From NCBI GenBank assembly GCA_944389235.1, contig CALXLO010000005.1:1-59080 (forward strand): DNA of 59,080 nt. Direction: 5' to 3'. Each line of letters starts with the position of its first letter. Position 1 is the stretch's first letter. This DNA comes from an uncultured Alphaproteobacteria bacterium. Its GTDB lineage: Bacteria > Pseudomonadota > Alphaproteobacteria > Rs-D84. Positions 1-33,766 of the stretch are shown here, in pieces. The notes beneath the pieces were generated by a model that did not search any database, had not been told where the DNA came from, and worked only from the letters and a program-made list of their open reading frames with translations. The position numbers and the translations under genes were made by a program.

Positions 1-317
1 AACCACCTGTGTTTTTCTGGTGGTTTTTGTTTATATTTTTATGGGGGTTAACATGGCAAAATCAAAAACCAAAGCAGGATTATTTGACGAATTGCTAAAC
101 GCATATTGTACATTGTTTACTTTGCTGGAACGCATAAAGCCAATCGTAATGGCGGAACTGGAATCACAACGGCGCGCATATTCATCCCCAAAATTCAAAC
201 ATTCAAGATTAAAATAAATTTTGTAATAAAAAACAACTATACTAAGTTGAACTATTATCAAACGCCCCTGCGCTGCGGGATGCATCCCCATGCACAAAAT
301 AAAATCGCCCGTTGGGC
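1..317 (+). repeat. Cassette copy 1 (end of C4-like RNA, terminator, 54-aa ORF, 3' flank); inverted near-identical copy at 26518-26834
   Basis: 1-317 matches the reverse complement of 26518-26834 with few differences; 1-217 also matches 589-805. Confidence 0.9.
53..217 (+). CDS. 54-aa orphan protein, copy 1 (MAKSKTKAGLFDELL...)
   Basis: GGGGG RBS-like run before ATG53; reading frame kept in three copies with amino-acid variation. Confidence 0.7.
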   Translation: MAKSKTKAGLFDELLNAYCTLFTLLERIKPIVMAELESQRRAYSSPKFKHSRLK

Positions 318-436: not shown

Positions 437-444
437 TTTGATTG

Positions 445-525
445 GCAAGGGCGTATTGCTCTTGCTGGGGCTTTTCAACCCTGCGTATAGCGTCAGAGTA
501 TGACGATACAATACTCCAACTTTTT
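445..525 (+). promoter_or_regulatory. Structured leader with a1/b1 target sites of C4-like RNA
   Basis: Hairpin 445-465; hairpin 467-482 with loop TTTTCAA (a1, 472-478); CGTATAG (b1, 484-490); alternative strand ACTCCAAC 513-520. Confidence 0.7.
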
Positions 526-595
526 GGTTGGAGTGCGGTGAATATATCGAATAAACCGCGCAATTCTATACGATTGTTGAAAAACTCCAACCACC
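526..595 (+). ncRNA. C4-like antisense RNA (three-way junction)
   Basis: P1 526-534/584-592, P2 535-539/555-559, P3 560-564/573-577 with loop CTATACG (b'), bulge TTGAAAA (a'); ends CCACC; covaries with the copy at 26828-26900. Confidence 0.75.
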
Positions 596-620
596 TGCAT
601 TTTTCTGGTGGTTTTTGTTT
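589..620 (+). terminator. Intrinsic terminator overlapping the 3' strand of the C4-like RNA
   Basis: AACCACC...GGTGGTT followed by T-run; same element at 1-30 and in the 26.8 kb copy. Confidence 0.65.
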
Positions 621-640
621 ATATTTTTATGGGGGTTAAC

Positions 641-805
641 ATGGCAAAATCAAAAACCAAAGCAGAACTATTTGACGAATTGCTAAACGCATATTGTACA
701 TTGTTTACTTTGCTGGAACGCATAAAGCCAATCGTAATGGCGGAACTGGAATCAAAACAGCGCGCATATTCATCAAAAAATTTCCAAAATTCAAGATTAA
801 AATGA
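641..805 (+). CDS. 54-aa orphan protein, copy 2
   Basis: Near-identical to 53-217, same RBS. Confidence 0.7.
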   Translation: MAKSKTKAELFDELLNAYCTLFTLLERIKPIVMAELESKQRAYSSKNFQNSRLK

Positions 806-5554: not shown

Positions 5555-5628
5555 GGCCTGGTGGCAGAGTGGTTATGCAGAGGACTGCAAATCCTTGTAT
5601 GCCGGTTCGATTCCGACCCAGGCCTCCA
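5555..5628 (+). tRNA. tRNA-Cys(GCA)
   Basis: GGCCTGG/CCAGGCC acceptor, GCA anticodon, TTCGATT T-loop, CCA end. Confidence 0.95.
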
Positions 5629-5942
5629 AAAATCAAACATCCTGCAAGGGGTGTTTTATTTTTGGAAAATTGGAGCCATCGAACCGGCACGGTTCGCATA
5701 AGAGCAGGATTTTGCCAGCGCAAAATGTTTGCGCGCCGAAAAATCCGTGCGAATGGTGAGTCAAGTTGCGTTTAGCAACGGTTCCCGTATGCGCAGCGAT
5801 ACGGGAATGCGAACTTTCCGACCCAGGCCTCCAAAAATTAAACATCCCGCAAGGGGTGTTTTATTTTTGGAAAATTGGGGCCATCGAACCGGCGCGGTTC
5901 GCATAAGAGCAGGATTTTGCCAGCGCAAAATGTTTGCGCGCC
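5611..5942 (+). repeat. tRNA-Cys 3'-linked direct repeat (127 bp x2, period 205)
   Basis: 5611-5737 ~ 5816-5942; each begins with the last 18 nt of the tRNA plus a terminator hairpin. Confidence 0.9.
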
Positions 5943-26378: not shown

Positions 26379-26428
26379 AAAAAGGCTAGACAACGCGATA
26401 AAAAAGCCTTATTATTTGCCAGCGATAT

Positions 26429-26505
26429 GGATGTTTAGCTCAGTTGATTAGAGCGTCTCGTTTACACCGAGAAGGTCGGGGGTTTGAGTCCCTCAACATC
26501 CACCA
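26429..26505 (+). tRNA. tRNA-Val(TAC)
   Basis: GGATGTT/AACATCC acceptor, TCTCG-TTTACAC-CGAGA arm, CCA end. Confidence 0.93.
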
Positions 26506-26616
26506 CAAAATATAATCGCCCAACGGGCGATTTTATTTTGTGCATGGGGATGCATCCCGCAGCGCAGGGGCGTTTGATAATAGTTCAACTTAGTATAGCT
26601 GTTTTTTTTACAAAAT

Positions 26617-26781
26617 TTATTTTAATCTTGAATGTTTGAATTTTGGGGATGAATATGCGCGTTGTTTTGATTCCAGTTCTGCCATTACGATTGGCTTTAT
26701 GCGTTCCAGCAAAGTAAACAATGTACAATATGCGTTTAGCAATTCGTCAAATAGTTCTGCTTTGGTTTTTGATTTTGCCAT
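26617..26781 (-). CDS. 54-aa orphan protein, copy 3
   Basis: Near-identical to 53-217 and 641-805. Confidence 0.7.
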   Translation of the reverse strand: MAKSKTKAELFDELLNAYCTLFTLLERIKPIVMAELESKQRAYSSPKFKHSRLK

Positions 26782-26827
26782 GTTAACCCCCATAAAATAT
26801 AAACAAAAACCACCAGATAAAAACACA

Positions 26828-26900
26828 GGTGGTTGGAGGCTTCTAACAATTAGCAAGAATTGCGACTTTTATTCAATATATTCAAAGTCCCTCCAACCAC
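26828..26900 (-). ncRNA. C4-like antisense RNA
   Basis: P1 GTGGTTGGAGG/CCTCCAACCAC, P2 GACTTT/AAAGTC, P3 GCAATT/AATTGT; b' CTTGCTA and a' TTAGAAG complementary to upstream b1 (26936-26942) and a1 (26948-26954). Confidence 0.75.
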
Positions 26901-26986
26901 GAATTGGGTTGGAGTTTTTATCGTCCCTGCGGACGCTTGCTATTGGATTAGAAGTATCCAGCGACAGAACACCCGTCGCAAAAATT

Positions 26987-27037
26987 ATTATAGTCAGCAT
27001 AATTTAATATTGCAATCTGAAAATTGTTTGGTATAAT
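26987..27037. promoter_or_regulatory. Divergent promoters sharing a palindromic TTGCAA -35
   Basis: TATAAT on - (26987-26992) and on + (27032-27037), 17 and 16 nt from TTGCAA at 27010-27015. Confidence 0.55.
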
Positions 27038-27051
27038 CGCCAAGTTAAAAT

Positions 27052-27299
27052 AGTTTTGGTGGTTAGTTCAGTGTAAATATTGTCGATTTCATGGACAAAT
27101 CACCGGAACAAAGGCAGTTTTGGGTGGTTAGTTCAGTTGGTCAGCCGCGTGCGTTGACATCGTAAAGGTTGTCGGTTTCATGGACAAATCACCGGAACAA
27201 AGGCAGTTTTGGGTGGTTAGTTCAGTTGGTCAGCCGCGTGCGTTGACATCGTAAAGGTTGTCGGTTTCATGGACAAATCACCGGAACAAAGGCAGTTTT
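27052..27299 (+). repeat. Tandem 89-bp repeats = degenerate tRNA-Val(GAC) copies (2 full + 1 partial)
   Basis: 27122-27210 identical to 27211-27299; align to the downstream tRNA; no CCA. Confidence 0.9.
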
Positions 27300-27376
27300 G
27301 GGTGGTTAGCTCAGTTGGTTAGAGCGTTACGTTGACATCGTAAAGGTCGTTGGTTCGAGTCCAATACCACCCACCA
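27300..27376 (+). tRNA. tRNA-Val(GAC)
   Basis: GGGTGGT/ACCACCC acceptor, TTACG-TTGACAT-CGTAA, TTCGAGT, CCA. Confidence 0.96.
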
Positions 27377-27521
27377 TCTTTTGCCAAGGCTTCTGGCATG
27401 ATAGTAAAAATAATGTTATAAAGAAAAATGCGAATGTATAAATAATCTTAAATTAAAATTCTGACGGGTTTTATGGGCACCCCGTTGGGTGCCCATATTA
27501 TTTGAAACACAGGGGTAAACC

Positions 27522-32075: not shown

Positions 32076-33725
32076 ATGACAAGTTATGATGTAATCATTA
32101 TCGGTGGTGGACATGCCGGGGTCGAAGCCGCCACCGCATCTGCCCGACGGGGTGCAAAAACATTGCTGATAACCCAAAACGAATATGATTTGGGCGCAAT
32201 GTCGTGCAACCCCAGTATCGGTGGACCAGGCAAATCCCAAATGGTCGCAGAAATTGACGCAATGGGCGGCATAATGGGACGCGCCGCCGATGCTGCGGGT
32301 ATTCAATTTCGTATGCTGAACGCATCACATGGCGCAGCAACCCAGGCATTGCGTGCACAAATTGACCGCGTGTTATATCATAATGAAATTGTAAAAATAC
32401 TGAAAAACTATCCTAATTTAACTGTGCAAATTGAAACTGTAAAATCGCTGGACATCGCGAAAATGTGTATCAACAGCGAATATACTGCACGGGCAATCGT
32501 ACTGACAACTGGCACATTTTTACATGGTCTGGTTACACGCGGAAATGAAAAAATATCATCTGGGCGTATTACTGATGACGGTCAATACCAAGCAGCAGAT
32601 ACAAATATATCAAACATTTTATCTGATTCTGGGTTTCGTATAATGCGTCTGAAAACAGGGACCCCCGCACGCATAGAACGCGCGTCTGTTGATTTTTCTG
32701 TATGTGAAATCCAGCCGGCCGACAACCCACACGATTGGTTTTCAGAACCAAATCCTGATAATAATTTCAGTGCAGTATGCTATATAACACACACCACCCA
32801 AAAAACACACGATATAATTCGCGAAAATATCGCATCCGCCCCAATGTATAACGGCGATATTCATGGCACAGGTCCGCGCTATTGTCCCAGTCTGGAAGAT
32901 AAAGTTATGCGATTTCCGGAACATAAATCGCACCATGTTTTCTTGGAACCCGAAGGACTGACCAGCAACCTGATTTACCCAAATGGAATTTCGACCAGTT
33001 TTGGTACAGATATCCAAGATAAATGGATTCGTACTATACCAGGACTGGAAAATGCGCACATTGTACGATATGGATATGCCATTGAATACGATGCGATTGA
33101 CGCACGCGCACTGCGTGATACACTGGCATCCAAAGATATTCCCGGTTTATTCTTTGCCGGTCAAATTAATGGCACATCAGGATATGAAGAAGCCGCCGCC
33201 CAAGGCATCGTCGCCGGCAGTAATGCTGCTGCATACGCATTGGGGTTGGCACCTTTATTGCTGGACCGAACAAACGCGATGATTGGTGTTATGATTGACG
33301 ATATAACCACAATCGGTGTTGATGAACCGTATCGCATGTTTACATCACGCGCAGAATATAGGTTAAATCTGCGGGCAGATAATGCAATTGTGCGATTGGG
33401 TGATATGGCAGTAAATCTGGGATTAATAGATTCAAAATCGCGCGATAAAAAATACACATATCGCGCTGATAAAATTGCCGAAAATGATAAAATTTATGCC
33501 GGATATATCCAGCGCAACGAACGCGAAATTGCGGCGTACCGGCGTGATGCAGAATTAAAAATTCCAGCACATTTTGAATACAAAAATTTACCGGGATTAA
33601 CCAACGAATTGGTTGAAAAATTAACCGCCACACGGCCAGAAAATATCGCAGACTTGTCGCGTATACCCGGCATGACCCCCGCCGGAATAATGGTTGTTAT
33701 GCGTAAAATAAAATGTGGTAATTAA
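32076..33725 (+). CDS. mnmG: tRNA U34 carboxymethylaminomethyl modification enzyme MnmG (compact)
   Basis: GGGHAGVEA, MSCNPSIGG, GPRYCPS, AGQINGTSGYEEA, YRMFTSRAEYR. Confidence 0.96.
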   Translation: MTSYDVIIIGGGHAGVEAATASARRGAKTLLITQNEYDLGAMSCNPSIGGPGKSQMVAEIDAMGGIMGRAADAAGIQFRMLNASHGAATQALRAQIDRVLYHNEIVKILKNYPNLTVQIETVKSLDIAKMCINSEYTARAIVLTTGTFLHGLVTRGNEKISSGRITDDGQYQAADTNISNILSDSGFRIMRLKTGTPARIERASVDFSVCEIQPADNPHDWFSEPNPDNNFSAVCYITHTTQKTHDIIRENIASAPMYNGDIHGTGPRYCPSLEDKVMRFPEHKSHHVFLEPEGLTSNLIYPNGISTSFGTDIQDKWIRTIPGLENAHIVRYGYAIEYDAIDARALRDTLASKDIPGLFFAGQINGTSGYEEAAAQGIVAGSNAAAYALGLAPLLLDRTNAMIGVMIDDITTIGVDEPYRMFTSRAEYRLNLRADNAIVRLGDMAVNLGLIDSKSRDKKYTYRADKIAENDKIYAGYIQRNEREIAAYRRDAELKIPAHFEYKNLPGLTNELVEKLTATRPENIADLSRIPGMTPAGIMVVMRKIKCGN

Positions 33726-33766
33726 AAATATTAAAAAAAGCCGGCTTTTGCCGGTCTTTTTTAATA

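Follow-up and report, generated by a model that had tools for sequence, protein, structure and literature searches.

The DNA analyzed here (the window) is a stretch of 59,080 nucleotides (nt) from contig CALXLO010000005.1 (assembly GCA_944389235.1) of an uncultured alphaproteobacterium of the Rs-D84 lineage. It contains three copies of a small cassette. The one studied in most detail, copy 3, lies at 26518-27015 (coordinates are window positions unless a contig is named), reads on the minus strand and is flanked by tRNA-Val(TAC) at 26429-26505 and tRNA-Val(GAC) at 27300-27376, as an earlier note on this DNA had stated. Judged from its sequence, copy 3 is probably a self-contained transcription unit composed of a promoter, a leader RNA of about 175 nt, an intrinsic terminator, a ribosome-binding site and an open reading frame (ORF) of 54 amino acids (aa). 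We consider it likely that the leader is a terminator switch resembling the Brt RNAs of Bartonella, which chooses between termination and antitermination before the downstream gene, and that it belongs to a large uncatalogued group of cis-acting terminator/antiterminator leaders in small-genome gut Alphaproteobacteria. The earlier note had interpreted the variable helices a and b of the leader as an RNA recognition code under diversifying selection, linked to a constant effector. On the reading we favor, the a and b sequences of the three copies differ through ordinary compensatory changes, their leaders being old paralogues.

The leader core (26804-26959) consists, from its 5' end, of GGAU, a, b, H1, P1, P2, b', a', a pre-terminator segment and a terminator, and it is matched by the covariance model R1 described below with 139.4 bits (E = 2.3e-31). 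The minimum-energy fold of 26805-26979 (-66.4 kcal/mol) has the same architecture. Both the fold and covariation support an outer closing helix between a1 (CTTCTAA, 26948-26954) and a' (TTAGAAG, 26840-26846). A second closing helix starts with b1 (TAGCAAG, 26936-26942), whose partner b' (CTTGCTA, 26851-26857) is embedded in GCAATT-b'-ATTG at 26847-26863; there, b' is predicted either to pair with b1 or to lie in a loop while the two linkers pair mutually (P3). Three hairpins stand between the b strands: H1 (CGTCC-gcag-GGACG, 26922-26935, arms 26935-26931 and 26926-26922), P1 (CTCCAACC-caattcgt-GGTTGGAG, 26891-26914) and P2 (26864-26889), in which GACTTT (26889-26884) and AAAGTC (26869-26864) enclose the conserved loop GAATATATTGAATA. 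H1 appears to be optional, being missing from the copy at C2:62910. The pre-terminator segment CCTCCAACCACC (26828-26839) contains CTCCAACC, a repeat of the P1 5' arm, and AACCACC, the 5' arm of the intrinsic terminator AACCACC-13 nt loop-GGTGGTT-TTTTT (26804-26834).

Comparison of the three copies supports this structure. Copy 2 (444-805, plus strand) has a 5' hairpin H0, a leader core at 467-617 (154.3 bits with R1) and an ORF at 641-805. Copy 1 (1-317, plus strand) enters the window with its terminator, ORF (53-217) and 3' flank; its leader is outside the window, at 49-215 of contig C9 and at the end of that contig, the last 77 bases of C9 being window positions 1-77. The earlier note held that the paired elements of copy 3 differ from those of copy 2 (the module at 445-620) and stay complementary, and every pair that it listed was located in both copies. 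The outer helix, b, P2 and H1 are TTTTCAA/TTGAAAA, CGTATAG/CTATACG, GCGGT/ACCGC and CGTCA/TGACG in copy 2, and the first hairpin differs as well (GGCAAG/CTTGC in copy 2, GCGAC-gggtgttct-GTCGC at 26979-26961 in copy 3). The P1 core CTCCAACC/GGTTGGAG, the stretch GAATATAT(C/T)GAATAAA and the ORF are conserved between the copies, again in agreement with the note, and so are the linkers GCAATTC and ATTG and the terminator. By repeat search the copies share 96% identity in the ORF part and 70% in the leader part. In a covariance-model alignment of the three cassette leaders, 98.4% of 125 cells were paired and 13 of 42 pairs had changed on both sides (6 of the 7 b pairs, 3 in the outer helix, 3 of the 5 P2 pairs and 1 in H1). 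None of 500 shuffles matched these values, and with the partners slid by 1-3 columns only 35-48% of the cells were paired. The compensated changes are thus covariation, as had been claimed, and they show a folded RNA.

The ORF of copy 3 is indeed a mosaic: its 5' part carries GCAGAACTA as in copy 2, and its 3' end together with about 100 nt of flank is as in copy 1. Near-identical ORFs (93-94% between the three copies) behind dissimilar leaders would fit a recent event of duplication or gene conversion that copied the ORF segment and had its breakpoint in the conserved terminator region, because the ORF is mosaic and the closest copy-2-like leaders elsewhere precede other genes. In copy 1 (C9 leader, locus L024) the b helix, CTATACG/CGTATAG, has the two strands of the copy 2 helix (CGTATAG/CTATACG, 485-491 and 566-572) exchanged; both are pieces of the near-palindrome CGTATACG.

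The leader is not confined to these cassettes. When the own genome (G000, 823 kb; C-numbers are its contigs, and other G-numbers are relatives) was searched with a P1 hairpin pattern, nine loci emerged, and a BLAST match on contig C4 gave a tenth copy. For 8 of the 10 the minimum-free-energy fold has the common architecture, with a:a' and b:b' as two junction-closing helices, and R1 was built from these eight. H0 differs in sequence among the copies, and 7 of its 8 pairs stay paired with changes on both sides in the 10-copy alignment. In the own genome R1 gave 17 matches at E ≤ 0.001 and three weaker ones that look genuine by eye. Matches were present in 31 of 41 genomes (G000 counted), including 23 of 24 from the same genus, with up to 44 in one genome of about 1 Mb. 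They were also present in 7 of 16 genomes from five other families of the order, in four of those families. A class-wide sample of one genome per genus from 150 genera contained 5 matching genera outside this genus, with genomes of 1.1-2.5 Mb. Among the papers listed for 'Enterousia', judged by titles and abstract openings, none concerned RNA, and the search for a published description of the family covered that literature and Bartonella Brt. In Rfam, the whole window yielded only four tRNAs at gathering thresholds, and at E ≤ 10 all non-tRNA matches in 26400-27400 were far under their gathering scores.

Covariation in the larger family is extensive. In 45 leaders aligned to R1 (the set behind the pair statistics that follow), 93.5% of 1850 cells were paired in the terminating structure (structure A), and 40 of 42 pairs had changed on both sides. 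The covariation score was 0.62, as compared with 0.19 for shuffled alignments (none of 500 reached 0.62) and at most 0.084 with the partners slid. P1 was paired in 95.5% of cells and the terminator helix in 96.5%; all 5 P2 pairs, all 8 a-pairs and all 7 b-pairs were double-changed, and each leader had its own a and b. G-U or U-G cells numbered 113 and A-C or C-A cells 28 on the sense strand, an excess consistent with a fold of the sense strand. A candidate hairpin, Pa, between GGGG and the CCC after a, was paired in 64% of cells in one fixed register; the pairing is visible in single sequences as GGAU/AUCC, GAGG/CCUC and UAGG/CCUA. Three of four predicted viral contigs in IMG/VR that carry the P1-P2 motif (L127, L128 and L129) hold a full leader (80.9-98.1 bits), and in L127 a signal-peptide ORF comes after it. 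An ATG within H1 of copy 2 suggested a leader peptide, a candidate rejected as copy 3 has none.

A second fold competes with the first. RNAalifold on the 10 copies omits P1 and pairs its 3' arm with CUCCAACC directly before the terminator; this pairing encloses P2 and P3, the latter formed by the linkers GCAAUU and AAUUG around b'. The antiterminator helix was paired in 95.0% of cells, and 4 of its 8 pairs were double-changed (at 151:316, UA stands in 29 leaders and CG in 10), and P3 was paired in 90.4% (pair 276:298 is UA in 20 and AU in 17). Variation in the P1 3' arm is mirrored in the pre-terminator segment: GGTTGGAG/CTCCAACC, GGCAGGAG/CTCCTGCC, GTCAGGAG/CTCCTGAC, GGCTGGGG/CCTCCAGCC and GTTGGGGG/CCCCAACC were all found. 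Across the family the pre-terminator variants CTCCAACC, CTCCTGCC, CTCCTGAC, CCAGCC and CCCCAACC are each matched by the P1 3' arm, and pairing with that arm is the sole explanation we see for why this segment tracks P1. P3 is judged to be incompatible with b:b', from pseudoknot geometry and not from computation, because merely 0-2 nt separate b' from the P3 3' strand.

These data suggest the following switch. In the stable fold, a:a' and b:b' would close a junction that contains H1, P1 and P2. With P1 formed, the AACCACC/GGTGGTT-U5 terminator could form and transcription would halt ahead of the ORF. The alternative fold would have the P1 3' arm GGUUGGAG(G), the switching strand, paired with the repeated (C)CUCCAACC on the 5' side of the terminator, which would remove part of the terminator stem; the linkers of b' would close P3, and a and b would be left unpaired. 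Helices a:a' and b:b' and hairpin P1 would then act jointly as an anti-antiterminator clamp. Termination is expected by default because the terminating fold is much more stable, and it would be relieved by a factor or ligand that opens the clamp or prevents it from forming.

Two leaders before XRE genes of 78-79 aa in the own genome, C18:561-713 and C9:35157-35305 (both minus strand), are without the 5' partners of a and b. Folded with constraints, the C18:561 leader has the antiterminator form as its minimum-energy fold. Degraded copies of this leader type are present at C2:28636 and C6:12261. The XRE-gene leaders look like a subtype with a different default logic.

The closest known relatives in design are the Brt RNAs. 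Brt1-9 were described as nine RNAs of 194-203 nt that show little read-through and each precede an XRE gene (Tu et al. 2016, PMC5387305). Deletion of the 3' stem-loop of Brt1 was reported to raise trp1 transcription, and Brt1 read-through to be unaffected by temperature and pH and to rise as heme falls (PMC8070961). We retrieved 43 Bartonella loci (L076-L118) with the published BrtF primer; they comprise paralogues and orthologues and are not independent. The Brt RNAs are described as structured, about 150-200 nt long and present in multiple copies, each lying immediately 5' of a small gene and carrying a 3' stem-loop that prevents read-through. The present leaders resemble them in occurring in 17 copies, each predicted to be transcribed from a promoter-like site, with a length of about 175 nt. 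Both groups also have their elements in the same order: a 5' hairpin, GGG-a(...AAC)-CC, b, H1, P1, P2, linker-b'-linker, a'(GTT...) and a repeat of the P1 5' arm. Brt loci have GCUGA-b'-UCAGU, which is capable of forming P3, a/a' strands that end in AAC/GTT, and a P1 3' arm complementary to a downstream CUCCCGGAA. Their a and b differ between paralogues as well, and a G-rich ribosome-binding site comes after the RNA. Compared by inspection, 10 of 12 folded Brt loci had a minimum-energy fold with a:a', b:b', H1, P1 and P2 (L077 and L081 folded otherwise). RNAalifold on 33 Brt sequences gave the pairing of the P1 3' arm with the pre-terminator segment together with P2 and P3, the same alternative fold as in this family.

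The two groups differ in several features. Brt RNAs have a P1 of CCCGGAAUUCCGGGAG, a long P2 with an inner hairpin, and a GCGAG-ggcg-CUCGC 3' stem without a U-tract. The published accounts also describe them as Bartonella-specific and as always preceding XRE (trp) genes (PMC5387305, PMC8070961), whereas the cassette in the window carries a helical 54-aa orphan. We regard the leader as Brt-like in build and in its probable mode of action, not as a demonstrated member of the Brt family. By analogy with the Brt1 deletion we infer that this RNA controls read-through. In the Brt RNAalifold consensus (A6 columns 14-16, 62-65 and 182-189), the CCC after a and the P1 5' arm CCGG pair with AACCGGnGGGG before the trp start codon. 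This region appears to hold the ribosome-binding site, and a translational layer is possible.

Other regulatory leaders share parts of this logic. In three-tier attenuators, such as the PyrR-controlled pyr leaders of Bacillus, an anti-antiterminator, an antiterminator and a terminator compete. As there, a 5' structure in the present leaders would sequester the antiterminator strand, the antiterminator overlaps the terminator and the three are mutually exclusive. The clamp here differs in being a five-way junction closed by two long-range helices, and the leader in occurring in dozens of copies per genome before surface-protein and regulator genes. Transcriptional OFF riboswitches are similar in having a covarying, sensor-like multi-helix domain, conserved junction and loop nucleotides, and a terminator opposed to an alternative pairing. 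A structured domain backed by covariation is present here, and a platform of mutually exclusive terminator and antiterminator is predicted. Differences from the riboswitches are that the leader has no Rfam match, that its gene set is not a metabolic pathway, and that the switching strand (P1 3' arm) lies inside the domain and not in the closing helix.

For 18 of the 20 own-genome matches, a same-strand ORF starts within 120 nt downstream. The two exceptions are a match that runs off the end of contig C9 and the one at C6:12261, which has no ORF of at least 30 aa behind it. A Pfam scan covered 13 of these ORFs, and the 54-aa ORF was scanned separately. The products include cysteine-rich signal-peptide proteins, one with an Ephrin_rec_like match of 31.5 bits, small membrane proteins and an outer-membrane beta-barrel protein (46.6 bits). 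XRE regulators are also among them, two with HTH_3 scores of 42.5 and 49.1 bits and a third just under the cut-off; several products have no family, and the 54-aa ORF occurs three times. By eye, 5 of the 18 ORFs are XRE-like, and 2 of the 13 scanned with Pfam pass the HTH_3 cut-off. No coherent gene set that points to a ligand was seen among the own-genome downstream genes. GGDEF and RelA/SpoT genes were not found in the genome, and for this reason cyclic di-GMP and guanosine tetraphosphate (ppGpp) are unlikely ligands.

Several observations weigh against a terminator switch of the Brt type. The terminating fold was favored by 12.5-26.5 kcal/mol in five canonical copies. In copy 3 the energies are -66.4 kcal/mol for the terminating and -53.9 for the alternative fold, and -57.5 vs. 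-53.6 before the terminator 3' arm is made. With such a difference, switching needs an unseen factor, and the RNA could be a plain constitutive terminator or a stable small RNA. The unrelated set of downstream genes suggests no ligand. The 45-leader alignment was fitted to R1, which biases the pair counts towards structure A. A simple terminator scan did not call the leader terminator, whose 13-nt loop is longer than the 8-nt limit of the scan; it did call P1, read on the opposite strand. With default filters, R1 matched two places in 42 Brt loci at E ≤ 10 (E = 1 and 1.6), both of them outside the Brt RNA. Once the filters were switched off, 8 of 10 loci had weak matches that lay on the Brt RNA in the correct orientation, with E values of 0.037-6.7 and a best score of 13.3 bits. 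Metatranscriptome contigs (4 runs, 3 studies) span the ORF and its 3' flank, and one joins a copy-1-type ORF to the C9 leader; such contigs cannot show RNA ends, strand or level, DNA carry-over is possible, and they were not counted as expression.

The best of the other explanations is that the leader, once terminated, serves chiefly as a stable small RNA acting in trans, or combines both functions as proposed for Brt1, and that the ORF is expressed by incidental read-through. Its own promoter-like site, strong terminator, very stable fold (-66 kcal/mol) and many copies agree with this, and the conserved P2 loop and the CUCC/GGAG motifs are possible seed regions. The Brt RNAs were reported to be among the most abundant transcripts, to show little trp read-through, and to have a proposed trans effect on badA (PMC5387305, PMC8070961). 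However, the antiterminator pairing covaries and involves a segment located right at the terminator, which would be difficult to account for if the RNA did not act in cis, and the leader keeps a constant position directly upstream of a ribosome-binding site and ORF. Moreover, among the matches listed (at most 3 mismatches), the P2 loop had no complementary partner elsewhere in the genome. We consider this explanation rather improbable, although the RNA may act in trans as an added role.

The recognition code proposed in the earlier note, in which a and b would act in trans on matching leaders or targets and the ORF would be a constant effector, fares much worse. The arguments for it are that ORFs at least 93-94% identical stand behind leaders about 70% identical with compensated stem differences in three copies, that every leader in the genome has its own a/b pair, and that a trans-acting role was proposed for Brt1 (PMC5387305). 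A trans antisense RNA would have its complementary segments on two molecules, but a/a' and b/b' are carried by a single transcript, bounded by one promoter-like site and one terminator, in which the partners are separated by about 100 nt and pair with each other in the minimum-energy fold. The same variation is seen in the leaders of unrelated genes, in all 45 family members examined. Leaders of one genome do not avoid cross-pairing either: cross runs of at least 6 had frequencies of 7.5% within vs. 5.0% between genomes for a, and 2.5% vs. 2.0% for b, and such cross-complementarity is thus not depleted among paralogues.

Orthologues also bear on the code. The orthologous locus in G079 has the same promoter, the tRNA-Val(GAC) and MetRS neighbors, a leader (90.4 bits) and a homologous ORF. 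Its b helix is identical to that of copy 3 (TAGCAAG/CTTGCTA) and its a helix, CTTTCTAA/TTAGAAAG, differs by a compensated 1-nt insertion; H0 and H1 differ, and protein identity in the matched part is 57%. G013 also keeps the identical b, with a protein 37% identical over the matched stretch. Since the stems are more stable than the protein between species, they do not behave as a diversifying code; a and b in G079, and b in G013, did not diverge faster than the rest. On the basis of the G079 synteny, the copy 3 locus appears to be old and not a recent insertion. Nor is the constant effector supported. The 54-aa ORF is an orphan, found in only 4 of 120 sister genomes, and no copy-2 leader orthologue carrying it was found: the best match was 79% identical over 120 nt, and the four loci inspected carry other genes. 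Elsewhere, copy-2-like leaders are followed by a cysteine-rich secreted protein, a signal-peptide protein, an XRE regulator and, by eye in G096, a small membrane protein. Taken together, a recognition code is very improbable.

Equally remote is a DNA-level recombination site, similar to attC or to a miniature inverted-repeat transposable element (MITE), that moves small gene cassettes and uses the AAC...GTT of a/a' as integron core sites. Integron attC sites have the core sites RYYYAAC and GTTRRRY, fold from the bottom strand and are located 3' of cassettes near intI. In the leaders the a helix does end in conserved AAC/GTT and a bubble separates a and b, some copies are in tandem at about 200-500 bp (e.g. 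G003:C2:180525 and 180727), cargo genes vary behind similar leaders, the ORF is a mosaic, and R1 confirmed the motif in three of the four IMG/VR contigs. Against this, G-U is four times as frequent as A-C on the sense strand, the units are dispersed, and promoter-like site, U-tract terminator and ribosome-binding site follow one another in the same order in every copy. A recombination site would also have no use for the three-way covariation that links P1 to the pre-terminator segment. The inner a positions are not limited to RYYY/RRRY of the consensus, only AAC/GTT being conserved. None of the three Phage_integrase-family frames in the genome (308, 324 and 440 aa) is beside a leader, and the synteny with G079 speaks against a recent insertion.

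The product of the 54-aa ORF looks like a fast-evolving small protein of orphan type. Pfam had no family for it and the protein atlas no usable match. In a search of 5.8 billion proteins the sole match was a 93%-identical 54-aa protein listed as encoded in the window. The four sister genomes have homologues at E ≤ 0.01, strong in G079 only, and all four stand directly behind a leader (L071:1468-1647, L072:1483-1626, L073:1483-1635 and L074:1378-1653, all minus strand). The homologues are 47-91 aa long with a core ...Y...(K/T/Q)P(I/L)...E, and T6, Y18, P30 and E35 are common to seven sequences. The structure model is a single long helix (residues 7-44) with a mean predicted local distance difference test (pLDDT) score of 87.7.

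If the terminator switch proposed here is real, bacteria with genomes of less than 1 Mb would control much of their surface and secreted repertoire by one RNA device in 17-44 copies per genome. The Brt 'riboswitch' of Bartonella would gain a covariation-backed model, with its competing strands and the roles of the a and b helices, and the data suggest that the Brt type is not confined to Bartonella. Only tentatively do we extend this to the idea that these leaders and Brt belong to a single class, widespread and uncatalogued, of attenuators which sense a ligand or factor in host-associated Alphaproteobacteria; one shared cue would gate dozens of surface-protein and regulator genes per genome through clamp, antiterminator and terminator. 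If so, this class would stand in for the protein regulators lacking in tiny genomes.

The remaining parts of the copy 3 cassette are as follows, all on the minus strand. The promoter-like site TTGCAA-17-TATAAT (26987-27015) has 10 of 12 matches, and its sequence is identical in the G079 orthologue. Its TTGCAA palindrome is common to a divergent, plus-strand promoter-like site at 27010-27037 that faces the tRNA-Val array. The putative ribosome-binding site GGGGG (26791-26787) is 13 nt after the U-run, and the ORF extends from ATG at 26781 to 26617 with its stop codon (26617-26794 with the ribosome-binding site). By repeat search, the 3' flank (26514-26616) is common to copy 1 and C9:348-441; it ends in a two-way terminator hairpin AATCGCCCGTTGGGCGATT, which is shared with tRNA-Val(TAC). 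This flank belongs to a repeat of about 100 nt at 212-317 (plus), 26518-26623 (minus) and C9:348-441, 3' of the ORF in copies 1 and 3; it also trails an unrelated gene on C9, holds the palindrome GGGATGCATCCC and ends in the two-way terminator hairpin at 26514-26532.

Other repeats were noted in the window. At 27073-27355 (plus strand) an 89-bp unit is repeated 3.2 times with 94% matches and runs into tRNA-Val(GAC); each unit combines a degraded tRNA-Val-like piece with a spacer, and the final one merges with the intact tRNA. Direct repeats of 127 nt at 5611-5737 and 5816-5942 are 97% identical and start within or beside tRNA-Cys (5555-5628). A terminator family, AAAAA(A/C)CCGGCAnnTGCCGGTnTTTTT, is found at 12 window sites after many genes, for example at 802-840, 2901-2939 and 33724-33762.

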